Source of the DNA: Styela clava
Taxonomy: Eukaryota
Reading direction: 5' to 3'
Assembly: GCF_964204865.1 (NCBI RefSeq)
Contig: NC_135260.1
Coordinates: 14,756,001-14,820,000 of the forward strand
DNA length: 64,000 bases
Position 1 is the first letter of the stretch; each line of letters begins with the position of its first letter. The translations under genes were made by a program, and so were the position numbers. This document shows positions 27,674 through 63,953 of the stretch, in pieces. The notes below the pieces were generated by a model. That model saw nothing but the letters and a program-made list of their open reading frames with translations. It was not told the DNA's origin and made no database searches.

Positions 27674-30643
27674 CTAATTGCAACTGGGCTTATAAGCATC
27701 TAGGTATAGGCTCTTCAGTGCATGTTTATACAAGTTATAGGTACTGGTCCTAATGCTATTGGGGAGATTATTCCACAATTTAACACCAACAAACTTGATT
27801 GAGTTTTGGGTGAGTTTGGTGCTAAAACGATTTACATAATAAGAACTGCTAATAGAGGACCGTGTTCCATATGAGTGAACATTGCTTTGTTTTGAAAAAT
27901 AGTTTGTGAACGCAGGAGGGAGTTTTTTGCAGTGGTGTTGGTGCATCAATTTCAAAACTTCTATTTTGTAAATGTCTGCCAATTTAATAATTTGAAGGTT
28001 ATAATAAATAGGACTGAGTCGTGAAAAATAACTAGCGGCAGATATTGCACGGATTGCTCGGTTCTGCATAATTTCAATGCGATGTAATAATGTTTTAACA
28101 GCTGAACCCCAAGCAATTATGCCGTATTGGATATGGCTCTGGAATAAGGAGTAGTACACCATCCTTAGTGTTGTTGGTGATGTAAATCGTCTAAGCTTGT
28201 AAAGTATTCCAACCGATTTAGATAATTTAACGGATAATTTGGATAAGTGAACATCCCAATTCATTTTACTATCTAAATATATGCCAAGATATTTATAAGA
28301 ATGGACATTTTCAAGTTCTTTGTCATCAATTTGTATTACTGTTTCATTTTTAGATTTGCACTGGTGTGGAGATATTAACATAGTTTTTGATTTGCCAATG
28401 TTCAGTGTTAGTTTATTAGACCGCATCCAATTTGATACTTTCGCAATTTCAGAATTTACTCTCAACTGAAGAACTGCACAAGATTTGTCGCTGTCGAGAA
28501 GATTGGTATCATCAGCAAACAATTTGGTAAAGAAGGAGGAACAACAAGTTATGTCATTTACATAGACTAGAAATAGAAGAGGACCCAAGCAACTACCTTG
28601 AGGAACTCCGTGAGTCACTGGTGAGGGAGAGGAACGACACGACCCAACTTGAACATATTGTGATCTATTACTTAAATAACTAGAAATGAGTTTGTTTGCT
28701 GTACCCCTGATACCGAAATGTCTCAACTTGTAAATCAGGATGTTATGATTTACGGTATCGAAGGCCTTCCTTAAATCTAGGAATGTTGCACTGACAAACT
28801 CCTTCCTCTCTAGTTTATCGTAGATATATGATATTGTGTCTAAGATAGCATGTGATGTAGATAGATTATTTTGGAAGCCAAACTGTGATTTATTTATTAC
28901 ATCATGTTTCGTAAAAAAAGCATTGAGTCGCTTATGAATCAAACGCTCAAATATTTTACTTATTGATGAAAGAATTGAAATTGGTCTGTAATTTGACATA
29001 CATTTTTTATCGCCAGATTTGAAAAGAGGGATCACTCGGGCAATTTTGAGACATGCAGGGAAGATTCCAAACAAAAGTGAACAATTGAAGAATTCAGCCA
29101 AACATGGTGCAATGAGATCAGCAACTAATTTAAGGAAACGTGCTGGTATGTTGTCTGGACCAACTGCCTTCCTGTCTTTCAAATTATGTATTTCTATTAT
29201 CAATTCATTTGTAGTCGCTGGGCTCATGAAGATGGACTGGTTTATACAATTGTGAAGAAATTGTTTAAAGCTATCCTGTTCAGTGGAAAACTTGCCTGAA
29301 AGGCTAGACCCAATTGTAGAAAAATACTTATTAAATTCTGTAGCAATCAAAAGTTCATCTCTAATTATAGAGCCATTTTCAATATCGATCTCGTTAACTT
29401 TTTGATTAGATTTATTTTTTACATGAGTGATTTCGTTAACTGTTTGCCATGTTGACCTAGGATTACCTTTGTTTTTAGCAATAAGGTTTTGATAATAGGT
29501 TTGTTTTGAATCATCTATGGCTCTAATCAAAACATTTCTATACTTTTTGAAATAGGAGCGTTCGGAAGTGTTCCCTTTCAAAAAGTGGGATTCAAACATC
29601 TTATTTTTGTGGCGAATAGAAGCAATCAGCCCTTTGGTTAGCCATGGTTTTGATCGTAGCCTTTTTTGACGACGTGAGAGTGGTCGAAGCGGGGCGTGGC
29701 GATCAATCAGGTGAACAAAAGATTTTACAAATTCGCTGAAAACACCATCAAAGTTTTGGAAACTCAAATTGTTTCTAGCAATATAATTATGAAAAATTAC
29801 TTGTGTATCTGTGCGAAAGCAATCGATCGAGAATTTTGACATGTCCCTTGCTATTTTGACATAATTTGTATGGGCTGGTTTTATGCCACTGAGGCAACAC
29901 ATAACAGGAAAATGGTCTGTTATGTCTGAGAGAACTACATGAGATTTGATTCTAAAATTTGAAATATTAGTATAAATGTGATCTATAAGTGTTGATGATG
30001 TACTGCTCACTCTAGTAGGCTTAGTGATTAATGACTTGGCATTGTGAGAAATTAACATATCGGCATAATTTGCAATTTGGGCATTAGTTGACAATGTAAG
30101 TAAGTTAATGTTAAAATCTCCTAGTATCAAAAACTGTTTCTTTGCCAATTTAGCAAGAGATGCTTCAAATGCATTAGTAAAGCTTGGAATATTATTACGA
30201 GGATGCCTATATATAACACCAACAATTATCTTATTGACTGCGTTGGCCAAACTTATTTCAAACCATATATTTTCATAGTTGGAGTGATTGAGATTGTAAT
30301 CTGAAATTTCATTATAGATGAGATCGTTTCGAATATAAGCACCAACACCACCTGCTTTTGTGATGGATGGCATGTGTATAAAGCTATACCCATCAATATT
30401 AGTGTTGGAAACAGGGTTACACGATAACTTTGATTCGCTTATCGCAATTATTTGTGGAGGGGATGAGAAATTAGATAATAGGGTTGTTAATTTATCAATA
30501 TTTTTTTGCAGGGATCGAATGTTCACATGGAAAATACAAAAGTCAGACACTGATTGAGAAGAATTTAAATCAACAACTCCTACATTATTGCACGTTTCAA
30601 TGTCACAGGAATAAGCTAATTGAGGGTCGTTTGCTAAAGCCAT
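27674..30643 (-). CDS. LINE ORF2: APE endonuclease + reverse transcriptase, 989 aa
   Basis: Endonuclease motifs HVNIRSL, ISES, GDFN, IDHI, TDHFPV; RT motifs YRPISIL, FLDLRKAFDTV, GVPQGSCLGPLLF, FADD, YKYLG; uninterrupted. Confidence 0.96.
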   Translation of the reverse strand: MALANDPQLAYSCDIETCNNVGVVDLNSSQSVSDFCIFHVNIRSLQKNIDKLTTLLSNFSSPPQIIAISESKLSCNPVSNTNIDGYSFIHMPSITKAGGVGAYIRNDLIYNEISDYNLNHSNYENIWFEISLANAVNKIIVGVIYRHPRNNIPSFTNAFEASLAKLAKKQFLILGDFNINLLTLSTNAQIANYADMLISHNAKSLITKPTRVSSTSSTLIDHIYTNISNFRIKSHVVLSDITDHFPVMCCLSGIKPAHTNYVKIARDMSKFSIDCFRTDTQVIFHNYIARNNLSFQNFDGVFSEFVKSFVHLIDRHAPLRPLSRRQKRLRSKPWLTKGLIASIRHKNKMFESHFLKGNTSERSYFKKYRNVLIRAIDDSKQTYYQNLIAKNKGNPRSTWQTVNEITHVKNKSNQKVNEIDIENGSIIRDELLIATEFNKYFSTIGSSLSGKFSTEQDSFKQFLHNCINQSIFMSPATTNELIIEIHNLKDRKAVGPDNIPARFLKLVADLIAPCLAEFFNCSLLFGIFPACLKIARVIPLFKSGDKKCMSNYRPISILSSISKIFERLIHKRLNAFFTKHDVINKSQFGFQNNLSTSHAILDTISYIYDKLERKEFVSATFLDLRKAFDTVNHNILIYKLRHFGIRGTANKLISSYLSNRSQYVQVGSCRSSPSPVTHGVPQGSCLGPLLFLVYVNDITCCSSFFTKLFADDTNLLDSDKSCAVLQLRVNSEIAKVSNWMRSNKLTLNIGKSKTMLISPHQCKSKNETVIQIDDKELENVHSYKYLGIYLDSKMNWDVHLSKLSVKLSKSVGILYKLRRFTSPTTLRMVYYSLFQSHIQYGIIAWGSAVKTLLHRIEIMQNRAIRAISAASYFSRLSPIYYNLQIIKLADIYKIEVLKLMHQHHCKKLPPAFTNYFSKQSNVHSYGTRSSISSSYYVNRFSTKLTQNSIKFVGVKLWNNLPNSIRTSTYNLYKHALKSLYLDAYKPSCN

Positions 30644-30767
30644 GTATGAAATGTAAGAGATATTTTCTCCAGGCTGGAAATAAATGGCCGGTATTTTTGA
30701 TATATGTTTGGGTAATACATAAAATTATTTTGACTATACAATGTATGAATATTTATAATCAATAGAC

Positions 30768-31766
30768 CTACTTGATGAGAGAAAGGTCATCTTCGTTATT
30801 GATAGGGATGGTAGTTGTCATTTCGTTCTTTTTTATTAAAACTTTTCCATTATGTGTCCATAGATATTTATATCCACATTCTTTTTTAAGATCTCTTGCT
30901 TTAAAAAATAAGTCCTTGTTATTGTCATTAAGGTTTTCTATGATGAATATTCTAGTAGATCTTGTAAAATGCTGAAAATCTTCATGAAAATTGGCCGATC
31001 TCAGTTGGCGACGATTTTTTAGAATTTGATGCCTTGTTTTTCTGCGTACAAATTTAACAATAATTGGTGAAGGCTTTTTGTTGTTTTCTTTTGACATCCG
31101 GTGACAGTTTGATATGTCAGATGATTGCAGCGGTACATTTATTCGTGCTGCTACCTTCATAATTAATTTTTCACAATCTTCATCACGCGAGTAGGGTATA
31201 TTGTGAAATTCTAAATTATCCAGCCTTGACCTACGCTCCTGGTCGTATTGGCGTTCAGTAAGGATATCTATTTCTTCTTCTAGTTCTTCCACAATACTTT
31301 CAAGTTGACGAATTCTTCGGGTGTTTTTAACTGTGATGGTGCTCAGTTTGTCATAATTGGCATTAAGTTCGTCAAACTTTCTGGCAATGAATTCTTGGCT
31401 TGTCTTTATTTCTCCAACCTCATCTTTAATGACATTGATCGAGGATAACTGAGTTTTCATTTGTTTTATAGATTCATCCAGAGATGATAGAGATTCCTGG
31501 ATTCCAATGCTGGTCGGGGTGGTTGAAGAGAGATCCAGAGCTAATTTTTCAATGTGCTGTTCAATTATAGCCGGTATTTCCAGGCGCAGTGTCTTTAGAA
31601 TTGTGCTCTCAAGTATGGAGACTAAATTGGATATATTGTGTTCTGTTAAGTTGGATGCTGAAGAAGTACATGCTGCTTGACGTTCAGTTGGACTTTTACG
31701 TTTCGGGGGTTCAGGAGGGGCATCGCTTGATCTTGAATATGGCATATTGTCCTTCCTTGAATCCAC
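30768..31766 (-). CDS. LINE ORF1: coiled coil + RRM/CTD (L1 ORF1p / FP25K-like), 332 aa
   Basis: Heptad-rich region followed by RSRLDNLEFHNIP, CHRM, PIIVKF, IFIIENL, YKYLWTHNGKVLIKK; directly upstream of ORF2 on the same strand. Confidence 0.9.
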   Translation of the reverse strand: MDSRKDNMPYSRSSDAPPEPPKRKSPTERQAACTSSASNLTEHNISNLVSILESTILKTLRLEIPAIIEQHIEKLALDLSSTTPTSIGIQESLSSLDESIKQMKTQLSSINVIKDEVGEIKTSQEFIARKFDELNANYDKLSTITVKNTRRIRQLESIVEELEEEIDILTERQYDQERRSRLDNLEFHNIPYSRDEDCEKLIMKVAARINVPLQSSDISNCHRMSKENNKKPSPIIVKFVRRKTRHQILKNRRQLRSANFHEDFQHFTRSTRIFIIENLNDNNKDLFFKARDLKKECGYKYLWTHNGKVLIKKNEMTTTIPINNEDDLSLIK

Positions 31767-32103
31767 AGACAGTCAGATTGATGTTGTGAACAGATGTTAT
31801 AGTTCATTTGACGAATTCAACACCAGATGATTCAACATTCCATTTTTAGAGTGTCCATTATAGGCTATGATATTATTTAACACTAGTCAACTATATCTGC
31901 AAACTTAATCAAATAGCGAATAATGACACAGCTGTTCTAATGTCGTTCAGTGACTCTCAACTAGAACTAGGGATTTCAGATCGAATAGTAAATAGTTTTA
32001 TTTTAATTCTGAGCTGACTGTATTATCTGAAGCAACTGTTTCTGTATATAAGCTGAACCTTCAACTTCATAAACCTTGCCTTCGATTCACCAGTGCAATA
32101 GCA

Positions 32104-40205: not shown

Positions 40206-41295
40206 GAGCATCGCCGCGTTCTTGCTTTCCAGCATTGCTGTGTAGTAAGTAGTCTAAGTTTATCGACTACGTTATACGTCTGTACATATTTTGTTCCGAA
40301 AATGCCAATGGAATGGCTGTTACTATTTGTTGGTTTAACATTTCGTGATCACCTACTATATTAAAGAATGATAAAACTGTGTTAGAGGCTGTCAGCAATA
40401 GAGATGTTCTTGACATTATCTTCATAACAGTTAACGTTAACCTATAATCTGCTCGCACGCGGAACTGCCCAATGCTTTGTATGTTGTTGAACATATAGCA
40501 ATTCAGAATCTGCTTTATAATTACCATCTGAATAGTACAGTCAATAACTGGCACTGCCTTCACAGTTGTCCACCCCTGTTTTGTAGTTAACTATGAAACG
40601 TGCATTTTGGCAGCTGTTCTCCTGACAAGAAAGCTCCATTAAAAACTGGATTGTGAAAGTCGCCTTTTTGGTCTTTATGTTTTTCCAGTCAACGTATATC
40701 ATGACTGGGCAAATTATTTATTACAAAATCTATTGGTACCACATAAGGAGTTGTGATTTTGACTTTCAGTGCATTGGGAGTTTTTTAAAAATAATAATAT
40801 AGTCTAGGCCTACAAGTATATGTTGACTTATTTATTGATATTTGTTTACCATAGTATCAGCCTCAACTATCCTACAATTCCACATGTACTGTTAAAAACA
40901 ACTCACAAGGTGACTAAAAATCACAACTCAAACCAACCATTGTGGCCGGAAAAATCAGCGGTGCGAAATATCTGTATACCTCCATACCATCTCCCAACAA
41001 CATATGTTCAAGTGTTCTGTGACTCTAGACCTAAGTAGGTATGAATGATCAAAATTATTGTTCATAATCATCATAGATCTACCAAAAATCAACCACCGCT
41101 TCAATATTACAGCAATTTCGTTGACTTCCATTCTAAAGCTTTCATGCTCCTGATAGTTTTTGTAAAAAAAAAATGGAAGATAGGAAAAGGTCAAAAATCT
41201 TACTTTGAAACGAAACTATGTCCTGTTCTTTTACAGAGTCATTAGTATGAAAATGAAGTAGAAATTTAAAGTTAAGATATTGTGTATTTGACATA

Positions 41296-41949
41296 ATGTA
41301 TATCATGAATGGACTTAATAGGAAAAATCTACAAAAAGATGCAGATGATATCTGCAAAGGTGCACCAACACTTCACTTCAATAGAAGAGAAGTCCAAGCC
41401 TTGCTTGTGTTGTTCAAAGGTTTCAACAACAAAGGCGAAAAACTTGATCGAAACCAATTTCGAGATTTTTTGCAAGTTTGGTTCAGTATGACAGAAGATC
41501 TACTTATGGATCGTGTTTTTCGAGCATTTGACACAGACAGTGACTCTTACATCAACACAAAAGAATGGGTTGAAGGTTTATCTGTTTTCATGAGAGGAAC
41601 ACTTGATGAAAAAATTGATTATACTTTCAAAGTGTATGATCTTAATGGCGATAGTTACATATCGCGTGAGGAAATGTTCCAAATGCTGAAAAATTCTTTA
41701 GTAAAGCAACCGACCGAAGAAGATCCAGATGAAGGCGTAAAAGACTTGGTTGAAACAGCATTGAAGAAAATGGATTTTGATCATGACAGTCGTCTTTCAT
41801 TCGCAGATTTCAAACAAGCAGTTGTAGCAGAAGAACTCCTATTGGAAGCTTTCGGACCCTGTCTACCAGACGAGAAAAGCTTAGAAGTATATGAAGCTAA
41901 ACTAGCAGATGTTGCAATGGATTTTACAGATTTCTCCTCCAAAAACTAA
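41296..41949 (+). CDS. EFCAB1: Calaxin (EF-hand Ca2+ sensor of outer-arm dynein), intronless CDS; true start may be Met at 41305
   Basis: [38 protein letters not shown]; EF loops [36 protein letters not shown]; [17 protein letters not shown] signature. Confidence 0.95.
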
Positions 41950-42437: not shown

Positions 42438-45400
42438 TCATGTGGGAGTGGAAGTTATCTGAAAAAAAAATATTGATCTTAACATTTTGTAAATGTGTAG
42501 CGCAAAGTATTTCAATGAATTTTCTTAATAAACTTGTTGCACAAATTATAAAAAATCAATGATCTGTGAATTTTCAATTCTGAAAGAGCAGTGTAAATAT
42601 TTCTAACAATCTGTTGCTTTCAGTATAGTGATGCTTGACACGTCGATATTACAGAGGGTCGGAAGTCACTATGCCAAACTAGTCAAAATCATTGTTTGGG
42701 GGGCAGTTAACTCAAAAAGAATTATCTGCTGAACATTCTATGCTCCATGTTATCAGATTTTCTGACATTTTGCAATGAAACAAGTACCAAAAAAAGTTTT
42801 GAAAGTTGACTAATATACCATTAACTGTGATAACAAGAAAAAACATCTCAAAACAACTTTTTTTCAAATTATCATAAGAAAATATTTAAAAAAAAAATAC
42901 CATGTTGTTTGAACGTCAAAGCTGCAAAACTAGAAAAAGGCTAACGTGGATCGATAAACTGCTATATTGCCAATGTACATTTGCCATTAAACATTTAATT
43001 ACTCAACTTTAGAATTTATACCATATTTTCTCAATTAGCAATTTTTAGCAGGTAATAAATACCTCGATGATATCTGATACATCTGGCACATGAAATTGCA
43101 GAAGCCCAAGGATGACATCTTTTAAAACATTAGTTGCAGCTCGCGTAGATATGCACGTCCCAGAAAATGTCAGAACAACGCAATGATCAGACCTGTATTC
43201 CTGTGGGAATGGAGCGATAAAATGGATCTTGGACAAATTTTCAGTGACTAACTCATATCCCAATGAGAGAGGCATTGCGACCACCCGTAAAATGCAATAA
43301 AAAAATTTGTAATGTGTTCTTTGTTACATTGTTTAGTGCGATAATGCAATAAAACCCAGCAATGTAATAATCACCGTTACGGAAATCAATTAGGTATGGG
43401 TCATAACCTTTGAACGAGAAAAGTGAGAAGCGACAGAGCAAACTGTTAAATTTAATATCGTATTGAATATTGCTATAATGCACATCATGTGCCAGGAATT
43501 CAATATTCCATATCAACACAAAAAGTAGGGAATTCTAATTAAAATGATCAGCACAAAAAACTTTAAATCATATTTTAAATAGCTACTATGACAAATAATA
43601 GAGATTTGAGTTTGCATAATAATCGATCCCCTAAGCAACACAAATATTAGAGCAGGGATGGACAACAGGCCAAAAATTTTGTCCTCCTAGACAGGCTATG
43701 TAAATATGACATAAAAAGTTACATTTTATGAACAATATTTACAGTGTTTTAAAGCGAAAGTGAAAAATGATAAATGTCTTACCAAAACTAAATTTAATCG
43801 CAATCAAATTCCTTACGCTATTTTTTGCAGGCCACAGTTCGCCCAGGTCAGTATTAGAGTGTGTGATAGAACAGATGACTTGATGATTAGGCCTACTCAA
43901 AAAATCATTATAGAGTGAATTTTAGAAAAAATATCAATACTCACGACAAATGCAACATCACCGCCTTCTTGCTTCACCATGGGCCTGATTCTACTTTCAA
44001 TTAAATCTTGAATAATAAGGCCTGAATCTTCTTCACATAAAGAAATTAATGAATCTGAAAACAAAAGTGAAACGAGGTAAGCTGATGAAACTATGCTTCT
44101 AATATCCAAATTACCATTGCGCAGTGGCCTAGTGGTTAAAGCGTTAGACTATGATTGTGTCGCTAGCAGGCTGAAACCTCAGGTTGAAATCCCATGCCCA
44201 CCACCTCACCCAGAGTGTAATAAAGTTGAAAAGCATGTCAAACAGGAAAGATTCCACTCCTTTCAATATAAAGTTAACTCCTTAGATATCCGTCGGCTCC
44301 TTTTGTAAAGACTAGTTCGAAGCAAAAGGCAAATACGTTTTATAAAAATACATTTCATGAAATCTCCTTCAAGAATGACTGACATTGTAAAGTTAGTGGA
44401 ACCCTGTAGTCATCCGATTTTAATAAATATCACATTACTAGTTGTCATACTATCAAAAGTGTCAAAGATTTCTGTTACAGATAATAGTTAATTACTTTGA
44501 CATGGAACTAATGTGCTGTAAACAAGGCATGATACGGATCCCATATAGGCAGCAACAATTTTATGACTTGCAGTAAGTAGGAATAAGAAAGTGCTATCTA
44601 CACAAAACTTACCACAACTCATATTTTCTTCTTCTAGTACAGGTATACCACTCGAAAAAAATTCTATCATAGTTGCTAAAATTTCTGGTTTTAAATTTCT
44701 CCAACTAACAGAACAAAACCTTTGACTTGTGTTGTCCTTGTGTTTATGACAGACTTTCTGGAATAAAGAATCTTGCGTAAGTGCTAATAATTAACATTTA
44801 TGGTATAAAAGATAGAACAGTATATATTTATGTGGAGTACCTTTTCTTTGGTTCATTCAATATTTCCACATTGATTAACTACCTAGTGCATGATATGAAA
44901 TTTGAGCGTACACTAGGAAATTTAACTTGCAAAAGCAATGTCCAAGTGAACACTTGGTTGTTACAAGCCAGTTTTATCCATGTGACAATTTTGCTGACAT
45001 CGATAGTTCAAATCACTTTCACAGTCTCTATTCAAACTACTATCCATCTGTAGATATATTAGAAATTTCCGAAAAAGTTTTTGGCACTATGCGAATCAGA
45101 AGCATGTTCAAGTTTAATATAAAACTAAGAGATGGGTATTCCTGACAATTTTCGAATTGAAAAACAAATAGGTAAACAATCAATAAAAAATTTGTTCAGT
45201 TAATATTATGATGGAATATCCAGATCAATTAATCTTAATCGCAAGCCCAGTAATCGTCTAACCCCACTTCCAATTTTAACATTACATTGAGAGCGGTATC
45301 AAAAATATTTAGGCATAATACTCTAGAGATTAGGCATAAGGCATAGACTCAATTGTACTTGTTGAATCCATATCTTCTAACACATATGAATATTGGTGGC

Positions 45401-48400: not shown

Positions 48401-51400
48401 CTTTTAAATTTTTTCATATTCAGTACTACATTGTTTCCCTAAAAATGTTTAACAGCTTTGCATAGGAACTCTGATCTAGGTTAAATTTTCATATATATTC
48501 AGATATGGAAAGGATATCTAAACAACAAAACATGTATTTTAAAAAAATGTTCCCAATTTAAAGAATATCGAGAGCTTTAACCCAAAATGACTAAACTCGA
48601 AAAAAGTTTGTGAAAACATGAGAAAAAGATATAATTTTGATTTCCAATCTCATAATACTTTGGTGAATATTGGATCAAACTCTGATTAGAAAACAGTTTT
48701 AAAAGCATTCATTTTTAGCAATTTTTCGAATATAATTTTTTTATAATGTCAAAATTCGCCCCTTTTCTTAGAACCTTTTTTTCCACGAAGAAAAATTTTG
48801 CTCCACCAGGTGAAAGTACAAGGGCATTGTAATGCTTGTGAAATAACTAGGAACATTTTTGTCTGGATTAGTGTACTGACTTACTTACAAGTTATCCCTG
48901 AATGATTTGAATAGAATAATATGCTTGCAAATGAATCCTTCTGAGAAACATGTTGCAGATCAGTCAATGAATAGAATTTTACTTCTAATATACAGTTTAC
49001 TAACAATGGAATATAAAAATTATGAAGCTATTTTTATTTTCAAAGATCCATATTGAAGAAGTCAGACACAACCTGTCAATATATATTATTTTTATGCTCT
49101 CACAGACACCGGTAAAATTCCCATGAGACTGAGATCTGCACTAAGCATATAATTATTTGTCCTGATTGACCCATAGAATAATAAGTCTCTGTTGTCTCTT
49201 ATTATAGATGCATGCATTATAAGGCACAAATATAAATGAAAAACGAACTTTAAACCAAGAAGAATATCTAGCCCATATTAAGAAAACAAGCAGACTTGAG
49301 TGATGTAACTGTTTTTGCACATTTTCACAAGTATTTTAGGTTGAGCCATCAACAAAACATATCCAACCAATACCAAGTTACAATTGCATTAAAAAAATAC
49401 AAAAATAATATTCCACATATCAACTTTTGTCAAAAACAGAATATACAAGACTGACAATTGAAATTGAAGTTATGTGAATAAACCAAAGCATATTGTCATT
49501 GTCACATGCCCAAAATATATTCTACATCTCATAGAAAAAAGTTATGCATTCAAGTATTTGAATAATATCAAAATCATGTGACCAAAGTTTTAGGGGTCAT
49601 TTTTTGCCTTCCTTAATTAACTTACTATAAAGCAATTAGTCACCATTTTTCTTACCTTGACTTGTATATGATCTGATGCTAAGGTCACTTGTTCCACTCC
49701 ATTTAACTTCAATAATTGTCTGAAAAAAAATAAACGGAATTACAATATATAGGGATCATTGATTTTCAAAAAGTGTGGTTGTTTGGTGATAAGATTCTAA
49801 ATCATGGACTCTAAAATCCCTGAATCTCGTTTTGAGGTTTTATTTCTATTCTACCATTAAAACTTGACAGCAGTGGAAATTTGCTCTTCAAAGATCAACA
49901 CAGGAATTGAGATAATTATTAGTTACCATGATTAATATTTTCGAAAAATTTGAATTTTTATTTGGTGTTCCGCAAGCAAATTAAGATATCAAAAGTTTTT
50001 AGCAAACCAAAAAAAGTTGATGATCACTGATAGAGACGAACATATCGCACCATTTTATCAATGTCAATACATTTTATACGGCAAAGCATAAACCTGAAAA
50101 ACGATTCAAATGTGTGTAGAGCAAGAATACAATACTTTGGTTTGAAAGTGCATTTTCCCAAAAATATTTTTTACATTGCAATAAGTAATACCAGCTTGCG
50201 TCATAAAAAAGGGAGAAACTAACACAAATCAATACATCTGTAAAAATAGCCGTTTCTCCTTCAATTTACTTCAGCCACCGATGGATTGACTCATATAACA
50301 TTTAATTCAAGACTATTTCAGTCACACATATTTGACAGGAATGTATTTCCGACACTCAGTTCACAACACATGAAAAAAAGATAAAAATCTACAGTCAGCA
50401 TATGTTGAATTGCAAGATGCTTCTTCATAAAAATGATACTGCAAGAGCTGAGGTGCCGGAAGGTCCCAACCCAAGAAATTAGCCACAGTGATATGCAGAT
50501 GAATCTTTACACAAAATATTTTAAAAGGGTTGATCTAACAAGCGTACAATTCTCCCAAAATTAAATAATCAAAAGAAGATAAATTCAATTTTAAAAAGTA
50601 ATTGGGCCATGAACTTTGTGAGCCACAATGATACATGCCCATCTCCAATCTACGAGACACAAAATTTATTAATATTTTATAAACTGCACAATACCCGACC
50701 ACAATCTCCCCGACTCGCAAACTCGTATCACAAACTTTGTAACGCACTGGACGTCAGTTCACCGAATCGCAAGATTATCATTCATTATTAAAACTCAAGA
50801 TAAACCAGAAACATGTGGTGACTGAAACTAAACTTCACTATTATAGTGGTTATGTATTCAAATGAAATAGCCATCATCAAATTATGTATACATGGAATAA
50901 GATAAACAAACACAAAAGTGGAATAAAACAATGTCTCCAGAAAAAAAGATGGGAAATAGTAGTACCGTATCTTAAAATCGTTGATTGGTGTAATGATAAA
51001 ATCGATGATAATCAACGCTGATAATACGGTGAGTCAACCTGTATTTAGCATAAAACCCTTTCTCAAATACCACAAGTTTTGCAGTATAAATTCATCTTCA
51101 ATAAAGTTGTATTAAATATGACCTTAATAACAACCCTAACTATCACCAGATTCGTATAGAGAAAGTGGTCACCACCAGGCCCATCCATAGTAAACCATAC
51201 ACAACATATAAATACTAATAATTTTGTCAATGTTCAAATGTTCATACAAATACATTTTGTCACAATACTATAACCATTCTATATAGATTCAATGTCCTGA
51301 TTTTATGTGTGAATGTGTTGCTACTATAGCAGTGGCATTATCAACATCCTACATTGGGGGATTGTACTGATTGAGAGAAGATAGAGCAAATTTAGCAGCG

Positions 51401-54400
51401 GGTGCTTTGAATGGCCATTCAAACTTATTGCCATATTTGACATTATTATTAAACTGGGAGTCTATGTTATGACATCTGGGCTCAATAATATACCGTCATG
51501 TTGCGTCATGGTTATTCTACAAGATTTTTCAGACTTAATAAAATGCTCGCTTAAATTAGTAACACCTTGGTCACATAAAATTTCGAGTTTCATTTCTCAA
51601 GTGTGGAACAAGTTCTAAGGACATAATATAAAAAATTCCCTTTTTTACCTTACGAGTGGAGAGTTGCATTTGTGTAGTGAAGAGAAATTAAAGGTCACTT
51701 TATCTTTGATACAAGAAAGCACTGAGCAGCCAGGATAAAATAACATAACAGATGAATCGCTGGCAGGCACAGAATCAATTGACATGCTTTCAGCTGAAAA
51801 TTAGAAGAGAAAAAAATTAATGCAACGAAAAATGAGGTTTTAAAGGAATTTAATATGTAAATAGCAATGAAATGACATTTGCTACATTTGATAAGACTTT
51901 GATAATTTTTAATTGGCTGTCCTACTTTCTATACCTTTATTTTAATTTAGGCCTAACTCTAAGCAAAATCTAAATATAGTAGCATGAATCAGTAAGCTGA
52001 TCAATTAACTGAAGCATGGTGTATGTCTCGCAATTTAAATAATTGATTCAACACTCCGGTACTTTTGATAAATCAATAATAACTTTTATGGACTCGAGAA
52101 AATGAGTATGTCCAGATCATCTTAAGATTATATATTGGGTAGGTAGGCCTACCAGTTTAAAAGTGATAATAATCATAATTCTCCAGTGAAAAACATTCCA
52201 ATCTAGCAAATACAGCATTACTGACACAACAGAAAATTCTTAGTATACCAAGTGATATATAATTCCACAAACATGGTTTATAAAACAGCTTTTTTACAAT
52301 GCAACAACATTAAATAAACAACAAACAAAAAAACAAATGCATATATAGTAAGACATAACATGGTGATTAAAGTACCTTTATATATGTTAAGTTGAAATTC
52401 ATAGGACTGAGTGTAAATCCATAAAAGACTAATATAATTTTCATTATGATATTCTTATAAAGGTTAGTGATAAATGCATAACACAACCTATCCTTTCAAT
52501 AGCCTCAGTTAAATCACCATTTAAGTACATATGATATATCATATGCATGTACAAAAAGCTAAAATTGATTAAATTCTTAAATAAATCAGATGTAGCTAAA
52601 TCCTATATTAAAATTTATTCTATTTTCTTAATAAACGTTGAATGTTGAAAATATTGCACTTCAAACTACATAATGGCAAAAATCTAGTTCAAATTCTGGA
52701 TATACTTCTTATCTATATACTACTTACCAATTTCCCAGATGTAACAGTTGCAAAACACCAAGTTCACAATTCATGCAAGTACAATGATGGAACGTTTATA
52801 CAAAACAACAAACTGTGCTGAAATTGACAATATATAGAATATATCAAAACATCAAATCTAAACAGAAACAACAATAACAATTTAAAAATTTTCAAAATTA
52901 TGGTTGGCCATAGATCATGTCACAATAGATGGCTGGTTTATATTACATTCAGTCTTGTAATCATATTAGAACATAATCATAATCAATACAATATCAAATA
53001 ATAGGTATCAGGTTCAATTTGAAAAATTTTGATTTGTCACAACTCACAAACAAAAACATATTAAGGATTATGATACAAATGCATATGTCTACCAGTAACC
53101 AGTAATTCATTCAATAAAGGTCAAGTTTCAATAAAGAATAAAATATAGCCCGATGCCCAAATCTGGCAAGCTTACTTCGGCCACATAATAATTTTCATAA
53201 GACGATTTTATATGGCTACTCTGAACAAGGCTCTATACATACTGCTATGAAGTAGGTACCTTATTCTAAAACAGGAGTGTGCAGTATTTTTTGTCGGCGG
53301 GCCATATAGACAACTTGAGATCTAGCCGGGCCATTCAAAAAATTCAATTTCTTTCGGGTACACAATGAATTAAAAAATTCTCACCACGAAAACGCTATAG
53401 CTTAGTCTTACAGTAATAAAGGCAAAAAGAAGGAAGACTTAAAATTATGAACTTTAACATAAACTGTCAGGTTAAAATTTGATGCTTAGTGGGAAAATAT
53501 CTCGAGTGTTGACAAGGGTCGGACTTATTGTCTTGGCGGGGCAGGTTATGGCCCGCGGGCCGCCTGTTGCACACCCCTGTTCTAAAAGGACTAGAATTTT
53601 TCATATTCAGCACTGCCTATCCAATTTCCTAAACCCTGGGTAAGGTGGTGGGCATGGGATTTGAATCAGAGACTTTTACTTGAGATGTTACATGTTATCA
53701 TAAATAAAGCTTAAGTCCAATGTTTTTAGCAATAAGACTGAAGGAATATCCACATATTCATTGATTTACAAAGTGATATTGATATTACAATAGCCGGTGC
53801 GGATCAGACAATAAATTTAGCATTCGATAAATTGTATCCTTTGATCCTTAATCAATTATTGATCACGAACATTTCATGCACACTGCACAAACGATAATAA
53901 AATGAATTCTCACCGTTTCGAACAATTACTAATCCCGGTCTAGCAACAACTACCCTGTCTCCCAGGCTATCTGTCGTACATGAACTACAATGTGATATAG
54001 GTGAAGAAGTTGAGATATCAGAGTTGTGTGAAGTTGATCTGCTAACATTGTTTTTATATGATGAACATTTATGCGATCTTGATCTCGTATTTTCCATTCT
54101 GCATGTCATGCCAGGGTGATTCATTGTATCATCAAGCAGGTGGTTATGGCTAAAAAATATAACCGATAAATTAGGAATACAAAAATTTGGGCGGATTTTT
54201 TGCAATGAGGTGTAGAAATGGTGACTCCACAGGCTGCGGCCCATGGGCCGAAGAGGAGTCACAACCCCTGTGTAGGCAATGAGAGCAAAAAGAAATTACC
54301 TGTACAACTATAAAATATACACTTGGGATACAAATATACTGTTTACATGAACTTCAATGTTCATTCAAAAATATATAAAACAGTGTACAATTGTGATTTT

Positions 54401-54769
54401 TCTACTTCAAAGTTTTCTTTTGGCATAATTGGGCTGGTTTCACTGATATCCACAAACTGACAAAGCCGAAATTGATAATTCTACGCAAAACTGACAAAAA
54501 GCTGCAATCAAATAATATGTAATTACATGTGTCAGTGTGTAAGAAACATGGTATCAGAATAGCCTACGTTATTTAAGAACTTATACCACGGAAGCACTAA
54601 ATTGGCTAAACATTTGTAACAATCCTGCTAATGGGATCTTATTTTAAGAAGTATTACAGGTATGCCTATATTACAGTAATAAAATTTTCACCTCGCCTAC
54701 ACCTATTGTAAATACAAAATAAGTAGATGGTACAGTAGAAGTGTTCGATGCTTACTTTTCTTCTTCCAT
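42438..54769 (-). CDS. Divergent NFU1-like Fe-S scaffold/carrier paralogue, ~290 aa
   Basis: Exons 54769-54756, 54149-53914, 51793-51649 (MLFYPGCSVL...SPLVR), 49719-49656 (QLLKLNGVEQV), 44757-44613 (WRNLKPEILATMIEFFSSGIPVL), 44054-43945 (IESRIRPMVKQEGGDV), 43200-43063 (FSGTCIST...LQFHVPDV), 42458-42438 (TGA). Nfu_N + NifU domains are recognisable; the first two exons are less certain. Confidence 0.85.
43653..43851. mobile_element. hAT MITE (same family as 60602-60880)
   Basis: CAGGGATGGACAA ... TTCGCCCAGGTCAG; TSD TATTAGAG; shared internal GTTACATTTTATGAACAATATTTACAGTG. Confidence 0.85.
44119..44330 (+). mobile_element. tRNA-derived SINE, second family
   Basis: A-box TGGCCTAGTGG (44125-44135), B-box GGTTGAAATCC (44182-44192); the downstream CCCATGCCCACCACCT recurs inverted at ~53632-53670; 3' end approximate. 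Confidence 0.65.
45851..46275. repeat. Tandem repeat, ~152-bp unit, about 2.8 copies
   Basis: Units begin GAGAAC..AACATTAT..TAAATTTAC..GACTGTCAT at ~45851, ~46003 and ~46155 and end TGAGTGAAGTTTC. Confidence 0.9.
47172..47412. repeat. Long inverted repeat / foldback MITE
   Basis: ~70-bp arms CTAGATTGACAATC...AAGTGCTTAATTAATAAAGTCATT... and their reverse complement, ~100-bp spacer. Confidence 0.85.
53272..53579. mobile_element. hAT MITE
   Basis: CAGGAGTGTGCA / TGCACACCCCTG; GCGGGCC subterminal motifs; TSD TTCTAAAA (53264-53271, 53580-53587). Confidence 0.88.
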
Positions 54770-54799
54770 ACTAAAAAGTGGAGAGCAAAATAATGATCC

Positions 54800-55000
54800 T
54801 ACACCGCACATTCGCGGCGATACCATAATTCCAAAACCGGAATTCCGATATTCGTGCAGAATGCCGACTACAGGACAACCGCGCAGCATGAAAGCGAATG
54901 ACGAATGTTTACCTTGAGTCGATATCGCAAACGCCGCGCTCATCGCCCTTTTTCCGTTATCGCGTTGTGGATAGGATAGTGACTTTTCTTTTTTTTCGGC
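54800..55000. promoter_or_regulatory. CpG-rich candidate bidirectional promoter (NFU1-like / ACAD11)
   Basis: Local CpG/GC enrichment between the divergent 5' ends; minus-strand donor AAG|GTAAAC at 54913 suggests a first exon. Confidence 0.45.
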
Positions 55001-55520: not shown

Positions 55521-56302
55521 TCATGAGTCATGAAGGATGGATTAGAATTTCTGATTATTCAATATTAATTCTGTAAATGCAACAAAACATTCTGGAATAG
55601 GAAACGATTTGAAGGTAAAAACCTAGATTGAAGATAATCTTTAGGAGGGCATGAAAGGTACTCCTTGCAAAATTATGGTGATACAGTAATAGGCATTTTT
55701 AAAAGTGGTCGATAAGCAGATGCTGGGATTGCATTGACTGGGTAAACTGTCCTTTTCGCTCTTCCCTATTTCAGTATTTGGTAAATTGGTAAATTATGTA
55801 GCTTTTTGCTAGAAACATCCCTCTATCAGCCTATAAGAGAGATAATGATTTATTTTTCGAATATTATCAAAAAATATTTAACAATTACAATAAATGGAAA
55901 AAACATTCGTAAAACATAATCGTGAGGGGGCGGGCAAAACCGCAAGGTCAACTATGTTGGCCGACCCCTAAAAAAGAAAAATTTCCTATTAGAACAAGTC
56001 ATTCAGGAGTCATGAGAAAAAAAGGTCGCATATAGATTTTTACCTTAATTATTTACAGCAATTATTTGATGGATTACACATAACAGTTCCAAAGATATTG
56101 TAATATAAGAAGAGGGATTATTTAACAAGTTAGCTTACACAATACGATCTTTGAAATATCTATTTGACTATGAAACTGAAAGAAAAGTTAATCAGCAGAT
56201 ATTTTATTTCGGATATTTTATTTCTTGCTAAACAGAAATGTTGTAATACTGTTATAAACACAGTTTATCTTTTTAACTGTAAATTTTCCCAAGATATATG
56301 GA

Positions 56303-58561
56303 ATGGCTCATCGAATGAATTTAGAAAAACTGAGATTATATCTCAATCAAGCTTGTAAACTTGATGGTTCATTGTCTGTAAAAAAGTTTAAAGATGGCCA
56401 ATCAAATCCAACATTTCATTTAAAGATCGGGCAGAGGGATTTAGTTTTGAGAAAGAAACCTGATGGCAAACTTTTGCCTGGAGCCCACCAAGTTGGTAGA
56501 GAGTATAGAGTAATGAAAGCGCTCCATTCCACAGGCTTTCCTGTTCCTCAAGTTTTAGCTCACTGCACTGATTCTGACATTTTGGGAACTGATTTTTTGA
56601 TTATGGATTTTGTGGAGGGTAGAATTCATTTTGATGGCCTTCCTGGCAAAGATAAAAATAGCACGAGAGAATGCTTATTTTCTGCTGTAGAAACACTTGC
56701 CCAACTGCATTCAGTTGATCCCGATGAAATTGGCCTTGGAGATTATGGGAAAAAAACATCATTTTGTGAAAGGCAAGTTAAAACGTTTTCTCGACAATAT
56801 GAAGTAGCAAAACAAAGAGATATTCCAGAAATGAACCAGCTTGCTGGTTGGTTGAGAAATAACCTTCCTCCTGAACCTGATAGAGTATCAATTGTTCATG
56901 GTGATTACTCTTCACACAATATTATGTTTCATCCTTTGGAAAGTCGTGTTAGATGTATTTTGGACTGGGAGTTATCCACACTCGGACATCCTCTGACTGA
57001 TCTAGCTTATTTTTGTATGATGATCTTTCATCTACCTCCACAATTCAAACATATTTATGGTAATTTAGATACTGCCTCTGTAATTGCTGAGAGGGAGATT
57101 GTTGATCATTACTGTAAGCTTCGAAAGATCACGTCACCACCACAAAATTGGAATTTTTTTGTAGCTTTATCTTGCTTCAGAATGGCTTCAATTGTTCAAG
57201 GTGTTTATACTCGATTCTTGCAAGGCAACTCAAGCCAAAAAACTGCAGAGCTGTACGGTTACACAATTCAACCTCTTGCTGCACATGGACTGCAAATAGC
57301 AAAACAAGGTTGGAAAGATGATTCCAACAAATCTGGAACTAATTCAATAGTGCTATCTCCTTCAACGAAAGGAAAATCAGTGCTGGATAAAGTTAATGAT
57401 TTTATTCAAAATCAAATAATTCCCAATGAAAAAGTGTATTATGAATTTTTAGAAAAAGCTGACAACAAATGGTGTGTTGTTCCAATTGTGGAGGAACTAA
57501 AAGCAAAAGCGAAGGCGGACGGTTTATGGAACTTATTTTTACCAGGTATAAGTGGCTTGAGTAATGTTGACTATGCTCACATTGCTGAACAACTCGGAAA
57601 GTATGTCTTTGCATCGGAAGTTTTCAACTGCAGTGCTCCTGACACTGGAAATATGGAAGTGCTTCACCTTTATGGAGATGATTACCAGAAAAAGACTTTC
57701 CTGCAACCTTTGTTGGAAGGAGAGATCAGATCAGCATTTTGTATGACAGAGCCTGCTGTTGCTTCGAGCGACGCAACTAATATGGCCTTGTCAATCATTC
57801 CTGATGGTGATTTTTACATTGTTAACGGCAGAAAATGGTGGAGTAGCGGAGCTGGTGATCCTCGATGTAAAATTGGTATTGTGATGGGTCGTACTGAGCA
57901 ATCGGAATTTGGAAAACATGCTCAACATAGCATGATTGTTGTACCATTTGATTTACCTGGTGTTAAGGTCCTAAGACCAATGTGTGTGTTTGGATTTGAA
58001 GATTATCCCCATGGACATATGGAAGTTGATTTTGATAACGTTAGAGTTCCCAAATGTAATTTGATTTTGGGTGAAGGTCGTGGATTTGAGATTGCTCAAG
58101 GTCGTCTGGGGCCTGGCCGAATTCATCATTGTATGAGATCAATTGGTGCGGCAGAACGTTGCTTAGAAATGTATGTTGCACGTGGATTACAACGAACTAC
58201 ATTTGGAAAGAAACTTATTGAACATCAAGTTAATCAACACCATCTTGCACAATGTCGAATCGGCATTGAACAAGCAAGATTACTGGTCTTGCACACTGCC
58301 TTAACGATTGATACTAACGGAGCAAAAGCTGCTAGAAAACAAATTGCTATGATCAAGGTTGCTGCGATAAAAGTCTTCAAAGATGTAGTTGACAAAACAA
58401 TTCAAATTCATGGTGCGGCTGGCGTATCACAGGACTTCCCTTTAGCTGCGATGTATACTTGGGCTCGTTCATTGCAATTTGCAGATGGTCCTGATGAAGT
58501 TCATCTTGATACTCTTGCAAAATTAGAAATCAGAGACCAAATGAAAAAAGCTAAACTTTAA
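56303..58561 (+). CDS. ACAD11: Acyl-CoA dehydrogenase family member 11-like (APH-kinase + ACAD fusion), intronless, 752 aa
   Basis: Kinase part GQSNPTF, LRKKP, REYRVM, HGDY, LDWELSTLG; ACAD part APDTGNME, FCMTEPAVASSDATN, QGRLGPGRIHHCMR, ADGPDEVH; C-terminal AKL (PTS1); no N-terminal HAD domain as in ACAD10. Confidence 0.92.
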   Translation: MAHRMNLEKLRLYLNQACKLDGSLSVKKFKDGQSNPTFHLKIGQRDLVLRKKPDGKLLPGAHQVGREYRVMKALHSTGFPVPQVLAHCTDSDILGTDFLIMDFVEGRIHFDGLPGKDKNSTRECLFSAVETLAQLHSVDPDEIGLGDYGKKTSFCERQVKTFSRQYEVAKQRDIPEMNQLAGWLRNNLPPEPDRVSIVHGDYSSHNIMFHPLESRVRCILDWELSTLGHPLTDLAYFCMMIFHLPPQFKHIYGNLDTASVIAEREIVDHYCKLRKITSPPQNWNFFVALSCFRMASIVQGVYTRFLQGNSSQKTAELYGYTIQPLAAHGLQIAKQGWKDDSNKSGTNSIVLSPSTKGKSVLDKVNDFIQNQIIPNEKVYYEFLEKADNKWCVVPIVEELKAKAKADGLWNLFLPGISGLSNVDYAHIAEQLGKYVFASEVFNCSAPDTGNMEVLHLYGDDYQKKTFLQPLLEGEIRSAFCMTEPAVASSDATNMALSIIPDGDFYIVNGRKWWSSGAGDPRCKIGIVMGRTEQSEFGKHAQHSMIVVPFDLPGVKVLRPMCVFGFEDYPHGHMEVDFDNVRVPKCNLILGEGRGFEIAQGRLGPGRIHHCMRSIGAAERCLEMYVARGLQRTTFGKKLIEHQVNQHHLAQCRIGIEQARLLVLHTALTIDTNGAKAARKQIAMIKVAAIKVFKDVVDKTIQIHGAAGVSQDFPLAAMYTWARSLQFADGPDEVHLDTLAKLEIRDQMKKAKL

Positions 58562-59104: not shown

Positions 59105-62100
59105 ATGGAAGCTGAACACAGGAAGTTACTGCAACGTCACCGTATGACCTTGGCAAAGGATTTATGTATCGATGAGATTTGTCAAATTCTTTTTGCGGAA
59201 GATATTTTGTCAGATCATATGGTTGAAGTTATTTCGTCGAAAAAGTCAACCTTTGAAAAGAATGTGAATAGAATTTTTATGATATTTTTTCATTTTAAGA
59301 TTGAACCTTATTTAAGATTGTTTATTTGTCAATATTTCACATGAAATAAAGCCTTTTTTTGGCATGATTAAGCTGGCTTGTACCATGATTTATTTCTTAT
59401 CATAGACACCTGCTAGGGAATTATAATGACACAATTATTGCAAAAATCTTCAATAACAATATATATAGGCTACCTACTTATAGTAATTAAAAAATTTTCA
59501 ATTGAATTTTCTGATATCTCACTCTAATATCAAATTTTTTTCCAAACTGCGAAATAAATTGTGAATTCATTTCTTCAGGTTCCCGAATAAATTGGTCTTG
59601 ATATAAAGAATGGATTTTTTATTCTATTTCTCTATTCATATATGCTATTGAATTATCTTACTCTCCGGTATTTCTGGTGTACCATCCAAAATTGTAATAT
59701 TCAACAATTCTTAGAAAGTAAATAATAGCTTTATTATCATTTATCTAAAAAGTTTATTAATATTAAAATTTATTTTTAAAAGGTTGCATTCCTCACCAAG
59801 TTACCAACACGAGGACCACTTGCATTCAGTTTCTTCATTCAAGCATTGCATGAAACGGGCCAAGGACATCTTGCTCAAATTCTATGTCCATCGCTTCAAT
59901 CCACCAGATTAAATAATAACATAGGAAACATGAATGAATTTCCATCTGCTACTGATATGCAACCATCATCCTTTTCATTTGCTGAATCCACCCCTACCAA
60001 GGGTTCTCCACATCAGATTTTTGACTCAAGTTTTGAGATTAGTTCAATTAGCAATACTACTCCAAAATCGTGCAAGATTGTACCATCTCCCCGTCCTGTT
60101 TTGACGGAGTGTTCACCAAATACTGTTGGACAATCAAGATCTCCAGGCATTCCTGTTACCCAGAATCAACTGACACCTGTAGAACACATGGACATCAGTG
60201 TTATTTCAAATGATACATCACCGTCGTTTAGCGCAAAACGGAAATTTGTTCCACACAATCATTCCAATTTGGATTCTCTTCGTTCAAATTCATCTATTGA
60301 GAATCTTCGTTCAACTGCTGGGCTTACACGAAACAATCATAACCTTTCTCCTGCCAATAACAATCATATTTCTTGTACAATTTCCCAACCCAATCATACC
60401 TTACAACATCAAATCATACCGCTGCAACCAGTCGTAAGTGATGCTCCAGCGTGGGATAATGTCAAAGTGCGTCCTACATCACTCGAGGTGAATTGAATTT
60501 TTTTTAAATACTTATGCACTGAGAGCACCACATTGTCTGGAGTACTTCTACAAATCTTAGGGAAATGATTGTGTTTAAAAGGAACGCTGGACTCTATAGT
60601 ACAGGGGTGGGCAAGGTTTTTGGACCACGGGCCAAAAATTTTGCCCACCTAGACTGGCGGGCCATGTAAGTGTGGCAGTAAATGTTACATTTTATGAACA
60701 ATATTTACAGTGTAACAAAAGCAAATATGGAAAACAATAAGCCTCGTGCTAAAAATAAATTTAATCCCAATCTTAATAAATTTCTCAAGCTATTTTTTTG
60801 CTAAAACATCAAAATTGATTGTGGCAGTATCAGGCGGGCCAGATTGAATTATCTAGCGGGCCGTAGTTTGCCCATGTCAGCTATAGTAGGTGCACAGCCT
60901 GTTTCTCTTTTTCTCCAAAGGCATTCATGCATGTGGGATACGCATAGCAGCTAGCTATTCCAGTACCAGGAAGTAAATATGAAATTCTTATTTCGCTAAA
61001 ATTTGAATTTGTGGGGCAAGAAAGTATCGCTATTTAATAGGTTCATATAAGACCGTTTTTAATTTTCTTCCAAGTGTTGACTTTTTGAAAAAAAACTGAT
61101 GTTGTCATATATGCAATACTTACACTTGGCTGTAATGGCTGAATTCTCCTATTTTACATACAATAGTTTGTACTCACTTACACTACTGGGATCACAGAAA
61201 TATTGTTGCTGATTTCATTATATCATGCCTTATTTTTTTGTTTGTATAGTTTCTTCGAAGTCGGATGAATGACAGCTATCCACTGTTCAAATTATGCAAA
61301 GGTATCACCTTACTCATTAGTGTTACTGAGTTTGAACCTGTAGCTTGCCTGGACGATCGACTTGTGAGTATTCAACTACATCAAAAATGGCAGTAAATTT
61401 ATTGTAGGCTTGCAGTTTTGTGTTTAACATAATTGTAAGGCAGTAGTAACTCATAATAAGGTAATATGTAGTCTGTGAATATCAGATTATAAACATTTGC
61501 TCTTTTATCTTAGCTTTTTTCTGGAATCAATAAAAATATTTTATCCTGAAAATCGTATTTCACGATTTACAAGTGAAATTGAATGTTTTTAGGGTGGCGA
61601 GAGAGACTGTGCTAGATTAGAACTTATGTTCCAGCAACTTTCATATGAAAATTACCAATTAAAAAATGGGACAGCTGCTGAAATTTGGAACACCTTGAAG
61701 GTAATGGAACCCTATTCCGATTTATAATGAACTGATTTGATATGAATTTTTTACAAATGTCAAATGAAGAAGAAAGATCTATCACTGTTTTAAAGCATGG
61801 TTTGCTGAATCTAATAAATCACTGATTACCTTGTTTAGATCGGAAGTTCAGATCATGGCATGGTTATTTGCCAAAGATTGCATTGTCCTTATTCAAGCAC
61901 AATGGTTTATGTAACTGTCATTAACCTTAGCCATTATACCAAACCTGGACTAATAACTGTTGAGTTTGCTCTCCCTCTGGATAAATATAAAAAAATTCTA
62001 TTCTAATATGAATCTATTTGTTTAATATTTTATCATCGATAGTGTCTGTTGTACCATACCAAATAAACTCAATGTGATTTAGAATTTTTCATCCTGGGCC

Positions 62101-63667: not shown

Positions 63668-63953
63668 GTTAGGGATCTTTTTTCTTGTAAGAGTATTTCC
63701 TCAAAGCAAGGTCAAAGGTTGCAGAAACTGATCTCTGAGCAAAGTAACGGGTCGCGCAGAAATGCTTGGAACCACTGTGCAACTAATGGGGCAGATACTG
63801 ATAGCAAGCGATGGCAGATACTGATGGACATCGATATGCATTCTGACATAATTTTGTTTGATGTAGTGTGATCCCAAAGTTAAAAATCATGTAATTACCT
63901 GAATTTAAATAGGCAATCAATCGTTCAAATCAATGCAAGATCTGTGTCAAGAA

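Follow-up and report, generated by a model that had tools for sequence, protein, structure and literature searches.

An ascidian NFU1 paralogue lacking the second cysteine of the cluster-binding motif

The genome of the ascidian Styela clava encodes, in addition to a canonical NFU1, a spliced NFU1 paralogue in which the second cysteine of the CxxC motif is replaced by threonine, and which belongs to an ascidian family that has kept the first cysteine and lost the second throughout. NFU1 is a human disease gene (MMDS1) and both of its cysteines are needed for cluster binding; if the group that is sister to vertebrates has maintained a natural one-cysteine NFU1 for ~390 million years, the NFU fold would seem to have either a cluster-independent job or an unseen set of ligands. 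The databases label the paralogue as an ordinary NFU1-like scaffold, which masks the motif change, and its function is testable in Ciona and in vitro. Our leading reading, held tentatively and at somewhat less than even confidence, is that the protein is a cluster-free, single-thiol adaptor with the NFU1 fold, likely acting outside the mitochondrial matrix.

A spliced two-domain gene with a degenerate motif

The window, that is, the entire 64,000-nt stretch analyzed, contains the paralogue on its minus strand (Table 1). The gene has eight coding exons separated by GT..AG introns and a 993-nt frame in which the sole stop is terminal; the spliced product is identical to protein P0002 (RefSeq XP_039273508; source label, Styela clava NFU1-like), which bears out an earlier, sequence-only reading of eight exons that stay open and in phase. 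In exon 7, the G-S-C-x-x-C of NFU1 is replaced by G-T-C-I-S-T, and in register with the solved human and mouse NFU1 C-domains the threonine aligns with the second cysteine of GSCTSCPSS, so that translation and register together confirm the CxxT noticed in that reading.

Table 1. Features of the NFU1 paralogue, in window coordinates
Feature	Coordinates	Strand	Remarks
Coding exon 1	54756..54889	-	RefSeq start 54889; joint 54149/54756 in 2/3 RNA-type runs
Met22	54826	-	within exon 1; start spacing as in orthologues
LFCSP ([LM]FC[ST]P), family-specific N-terminal motif	54779..54793	-	4/4 full-length orthologues, 0/154 CxxC proteins
Coding exon 2: linker of low confidence followed by the conserved strand motif VVVARPG (53953-53933)	53914..54149	-	
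Cassette exon in two forms: 90 nt, acceptor at 52817; 130 nt, acceptor at 52857	52728..52857	-	both stop long frame
Coding exon 3, Nfu_N begins	51649..51793	-	Met127 at 51785
Coding exon 4 (Nfu_N)	49656..49719	-	
Coding exon 5 (Nfu_N end, linker)	44613..44757	-	
Coding exon 6 (NifU domain begins; RIRP, EGGD)	43945..44054	-	
Coding exon 7: NifU domain, GTCIST, remodelled helix	43063..43200	-	Pfam NifU match; translation EYRSDHCVVLTFSGTCISTRAATNVLKDVILGLLQFHVPDVSDIIE
CxxT	43144..43155	-	codons TGC ATA TCT ACG (43155-43144); Cys294 (43155-43153) kept; Thr297 (43146-43144) replaces second Cys
Coding exon 8 and 3' untranslated part to contig reach	42333..42458	-	stop 42440-42438; joint 42458/43063 in 3/3 RNA-type runs

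Pfam searches recovered Nfu_N (PF08712, 42.1 bits) followed by NifU (PF01106, 51.3 bits; cut-off 27), with a single NifU stretch and no tandem CxxC-bearing NFU domain. The AlphaFold2 model of the 277-aa isoform (mean pLDDT 79.5) shows both domains at high confidence, extra strands formed by the VVARPG motif, and a helix (residues 245-262) that starts immediately after the threonine; the region before residue 58 is of low confidence and the LFCSP motif lies outside the modelled isoform. The best fold matches are the domains of human NFU1 (2LTM, E 6.6e-8; 2M5O, E 2.2e-7), accompanied by the plant NFU structures 2Z51, 2JNV and 1TH5; all seven matches at E <= 0.001 have an NFU or Nfu_N-like fold, and a thioredoxin fold is absent from them. 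The best ESM Atlas match (0.89) is an NFU1 cluster, which we treat as a lead only, and homodimer prediction, in which the alignment was not used, scored 0.00 and speaks neither for nor against a dimer.

Exon 7 is spanned, with zero other letters, by contigs of X1, X4 and X8, from three studies, and of the DNA-type run X10, perhaps the assembly's own sample; the comparison covers 4 of the 13 listed runs, and the RNA-type assignment of the first three is a guess, no run being recorded as RNA. Splicing is inferred from joints that skip introns with CT..AC ends, of which five occur in all three RNA-type runs, two more in two of the three and none in X10; the depths of the contigs are unable to rank expression or tissue. 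Because spliced contigs of three studies carry the motif unchanged, it is no assembly error, and we reject that explanation of the threonine codon.

A ninth, stop-bearing cassette exon is spliced in the contigs of two of the three RNA-type runs, with the joint 51793/52728 present in X4 (side 90) and X8 (side 130). The 90-nt form (X4) stops the long frame at residue 139 and the 130-nt form (X8) at residue 128, and none of the contig-joint rows listed, which leave 46 more outside the listing, connects exons 2 and 3 directly. With the cassette included, translation from Met127 could yield a 204-aa two-domain protein; the records of P0003, P0007 and a Clavelina isoform begin at or near the exon 2/3 boundary, and for human NFU1, too, the available text of PMC4394698 gives a shorter isoform from a later start. 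At the 5' end, Met22 lies at the orthologues' distance from the LFCSP motif, and its start context is better than that of the RefSeq Met1, from which we infer that Met22 is the more plausible start. The X4 contig stops at 54869, where an AG follows a pyrimidine-rich run inside RefSeq exon 1 and is a possible trans-splice acceptor; trans-splicing at this point would make Met22 the first start, but we set the site aside as evidence because contigs cannot show a start.

The neighborhood of the paralogue contains several other genes. An intronless EF-hand gene (41257-41949, plus strand), presumably calaxin/EFCAB1-like, is convergent with it, the contigs of the two reaching 42331 and 42333. Head to head with the paralogue, ~1.4 kb from its start, is an intronless 767-aa frame (56258-58561, plus strand) with APH kinase and acyl-CoA dehydrogenase domains, which we take to be ACAD10/11-like. 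Elsewhere in the window are exons of a Twisted gastrulation gene (16336-24576, minus strand); an apparently intact LINE-type element (27674-31772, minus strand) with two long open frames, one of 1016 aa that by eye resembles an endonuclease plus reverse transcriptase and one of 334 aa upstream of it; a plus-strand region (59780-63871) with a caspase-domain exon (63488-63871), preceded by a 238-aa frame that matches nothing in Pfam; and plus-strand exons (9674-12128) that by eye resemble glycine amidinotransferase, two scanned pieces of which gave no Pfam hit.

An ascidian family beside the canonical gene

Word-based searches and a full profile search, for which the best 150 of 2690 hits were listed, yielded a family of six proteins covering the motif plus one N-domain fragment from Ciona savignyi; other degenerate NFU lineages may exist beyond these best 150. 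The motif reads CIST in Styela clava, CVSS in P0003 and P0007, CLYT in Ciona intestinalis, CLSN in Phallusia mammillata and CLSS in Clavelina lepadiformis. Thus, the first cysteine and the preceding glycine are present in all six, and the second cysteine in none. CxxT itself, whose conservation across tunicates had been suggested for checking, is not conserved in the family, because the site varies between T (2/6), S (3/6) and N (1/6, Phallusia). Among 152 aligned proteins, 141 have both cysteines, six are the family, four have gaps and one unrelated protein has neither; the last, P0068, is a 295-aa NFU-like protein. The named members are all ascidian, none being found outside this group among the matches listed. 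The additional cysteine (DHC) pointed to in the sequence-only reading does lie 9 residues upstream of the motif, but it is present in only two of the six orthologues, and we reject it as a general substitute ligand.

In a careful 24-row tree, the family forms one clade (support 100/100) on a long stem (2.83), nested in a 92/91 group with the bee, fish and Styela canonical rows; the paralogue therefore descends from animal NFU1. A clade of the family with the Styela canonical protein was not rejected (p-AU 0.26), and the tree leaves the sister without firm support. A quick tree was built from 45 hand-picked rows (30 nearest canonical, 8 short outgroup and 7 Styela/family), and the fragment P0014 was excluded from both trees. 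The inner split of the family, between the Styela group (Stolidobranchia) and Ciona, Phallusia and Clavelina (Phlebobranchia and Aplousobranchia), agrees with the species tree in the available text of PMC5899321, where this split is placed at 389 +/- 32 Mya; by this published timescale, the one-cysteine family is at least about 390 million years old. The proposal that the gene is retained thus holds, with orthologues in three ascidian orders.

The 154 CxxC proteins have 46 columns with conservation of 85% or more. Five or all six of the family members keep 22 of these columns, and no more than one member keeps 12 others; the lost columns include C as well as the two S, the T and the G that follow the motif, and losses cluster at the second cysteine and the following helix. 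The family retains RIRP, GGD, GxC and the [FY][HY]VP end; the TPN motif of Nfu_N and the post-motif signature are largely lost. Thirty-four columns are invariant within the family, and eight family-invariant columns depart from the canonical consensus, for example D to E (1% in canonical proteins; DGGD becoming EGGD), S to A, and E to L (1%). Identity between the two ascidian groups is 35-48% and 41-51% per domain; the family evolves fast, so some of the invariance is perhaps structural only.

The N-terminus is remodelled as well: besides [LM]FC[ST]P, all four full-length members share a VV[AV]RPG-type motif before Nfu_N. By crude count over the N-terminal 40 residues, the net charge is 2 (Styela; -4 from Met22), 3, 2 and 0, and the hydrophobic moment is 0.24-0.30; the medians of 78 canonical extensions are 5 and 0.46. 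Acidic residues are absent from the Ciona N-terminus. By these crude signs, the N-terminus looks unlike a mitochondrial presequence, which makes such a presequence doubtful.

Within the Styela clava genome, the only ascidian genome in which a canonical NFU1 was looked up, Pfam searches identified Nfu_N and NifU exons on contig C13 that form a canonical NFU1 gene with GSCSNCPSS and an arginine-rich N-terminus without acidic residues. A genome search with exon 7 of the paralogue matched itself and C13 alone; two NFU loci were thus found by searches that scored the best candidates only. The second canonical gene that the sequence-only reading had proposed to look for therefore exists, the window gene is an extra copy because the canonical NFU1 is on C13, and its identity as the housekeeping NFU1 is rejected, as that reading had anticipated. 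The genome also contains two ISCA-type genes.

The two Styela proteins are 26-36% identical per domain, and within the two domains no intron position coincides exactly between their genes. According to the available text of PMC4394698, human NFU1 exon 3 comprises c.167-302, beginning in codon 56 (136 nt, phases 1 and 2). Exon 3 of the window gene (145 nt) agrees with it in both phases and is three codons (9 nt) longer, and the C13 gene has no intron at the corresponding point. The numbering by which c.302 was placed on the 2LTM sequence is our assumption, and further intron matches to human c.369 and c.720 are presumed. Probably, then, it is the odd gene that sits in the ancestral exon frame and the housekeeping gene that was relocated. 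Between GGD and GxC, the Styela canonical protein and four of the six paralogues have a spacer of 18, against 16 in 10 of 11 animal-like rows; but a spacer of 18 also occurs in 72 of the 154 proteins overall, which leaves a weak hint of a tunicate duplication. The human NFU1-GFPT1 synteny was seen by eye at neither Styela locus. Frames read by eye around the canonical gene on C13 (L010, 5163-9661; L011, 498-6500) are what we take to be intronless MOCS3-like and 5'-nucleotidase-like frames, an EMRE-like end, RAD51C-like exons and SUMO.

Cluster chemistry and competing readings

In human NFU1, the loop that carries the CXXC motif is exposed, and cluster binding in the ISCA1-NFU1 complex is abolished by Cys210Ala as well as by Cys213Ala; with Cys213Ala NFU1 and ISCA1, no Fe-S bands appear despite three ISCA1 cysteines (available text of PMC10388178). 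In yeast, AxxA Nfu1 is null-like and loses Aco1 binding, and the dominant-negative allele is Gly to Cys (available text of PMC5014551). Because the human Cys213Ala and yeast AxxA proteins lose function, the paralogue, with its second cysteine lost, is predicted to be unable to hold the canonical cysteine-bridged [4Fe-4S] cluster and, by analogy with human Cys213Ala, neither to bind nor to transfer [4Fe-4S], the human evidence being for Cys to Ala and the family having Thr, Ser or Asn. Lacking CxxC, it is therefore not filed as a working NFU1 carrier, though its NFU1 descent and folds are kept.

Among the roles offered by the sequence-only reading, the retained pseudo-scaffold fits best. The adaptor reading is ranked ahead of all the others. 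On this reading, the gene was duplicated in the ascidian ancestor or earlier, and cluster delivery would have stayed with the canonical copy; in the paralogue, a more hydrophobic helix, likely a new binding face, would have taken the place of the CPSS..TLK.G.E carrier signature. S, T or N at the old cysteine site would have been kept as a likely helix cap, and Cys294 may form a mixed disulfide with a putative partner or touch it transiently through a metal. That an exposed cysteine is kept across such divergence, when the degenerate plant domains have none, suggests that the thiol is used.

The invariant first cysteine and the invariant N-terminal cysteine would fit a changed metal site as well. 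The strongest competitor, although an unlikely one, is a cluster or metal carrier with altered ligands, in which the kept cysteine would be joined by glutathione or by the cysteine of [LM]FC[ST]P. Monothiol glutaredoxins hold a cluster by a cysteine plus glutathione. The first cysteine is present in 6/6 members and the N-terminal motif in 4/4 full-length orthologues and 0/154 canonical proteins, and in the available text of PMC10388178 a distant Cys57 serves as a ligand in ISCA1; however, the same text has Cys213Ala NFU1 clusterless even with the three ISCA1 cysteines. Further points against such a carrier are the short form from exon 3, which lacks the N-terminal motif, and the position of this motif outside the model, whose region before residue 58 is of low confidence. 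A more elaborate version appears improbable: a second kind of ascidian NFU, arising from the ancestral NFU1 locus as a non-matrix iron-sulfur or metal carrier, would use the [LM]FC[ST]P cysteine in place of the lost CxxC ligand, the stop-bearing cassette would drop the motif and so switch the carrier off or make a cluster-free form, and the relocated copy would have taken over housekeeping.

Dominant-negative and redox roles, both raised in the sequence-only reading, are less likely than the adaptor. As a mitochondrial decoy, the paralogue would bind ISCA1 or NFU1 clients and throttle [4Fe-4S] delivery. Such binding is conceivable, given that RIRP, GGD, GxC and the [FY][HY]VP end are kept, that ISCA-type genes are present in the genome, and that titration of Cys-mutant human NFU1 with ISCA1 yielded an apo complex at 1:1 (available text of PMC10388178). 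Yet yeast AxxA is a loss-of-function protein with no detectable Aco1 binding and the dominant-negative allele differs in kind (available text of PMC5014551), the post-motif helix is remodelled and the presequence is doubtful, all of which weakens the decoy to a slim prospect. CxxS/T redox motifs are known in thioredoxin-fold proteins, and a thiol redox enzyme with such an active site would accord with CxxS or CxxT in five of the six members; but Phallusia has Asn, and the fold matches listed are NFU and include no thioredoxin fold. Moreover, S, T and N are the usual helix-cap residues, and in the model the site precedes a helix, a position suiting a cap, which leaves the redox enzyme a slim prospect too. 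Relaxed selection on a duplicate in decay, or on a pseudogene that is still transcribed, is suggested by long branches and by the stop-bearing cassette in contigs of two of three RNA-type runs but is highly improbable in view of an open frame and both domains in six proteins across a ~390 Mya split, the 34 family-invariant columns, new shared motifs, the open 993-nt frame and five joints in all three RNA-type runs.

Relation to known NFU proteins

Full-text searches of papers outside subscription on NFU1 in ascidians or in Ciona found no description of such a paralogue, and the available text of PMC10388178 describes the role of the NFU1 N-domain as still not known. The closest relative is type II NFU1/Nfu1 (Nfu_N plus NifU; human 2LTM, 2M5O), with which the paralogue has both Pfam domains and folds in common, and from which it differs in Cxx[STN] in place of CxxC, a doubtful presequence and new N-terminal motifs. 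Laboratory human Cys213Ala and yeast AxxA lack the same second cysteine, but these are loss-of-function changes on an otherwise unchanged surface, whereas the paralogue is natural, long-kept and remodelled in its surface. Monothiol glutaredoxins of the CxxS type likewise have a single cysteine in Cxx[ST] before a helix, although the fold of the paralogue differs and one family member has Asn. An NFU domain kept without a cluster site has a parallel in the plant plastid NFU1-3, which, in the available text of PMC6006212, carry a second NFU domain without cysteines beside a CxxC domain; in the plant proteins, however, this is a tandem extra domain, whereas in the ascidian paralogue it is the sole NifU domain, encoded by a separate gene and with one cysteine kept.
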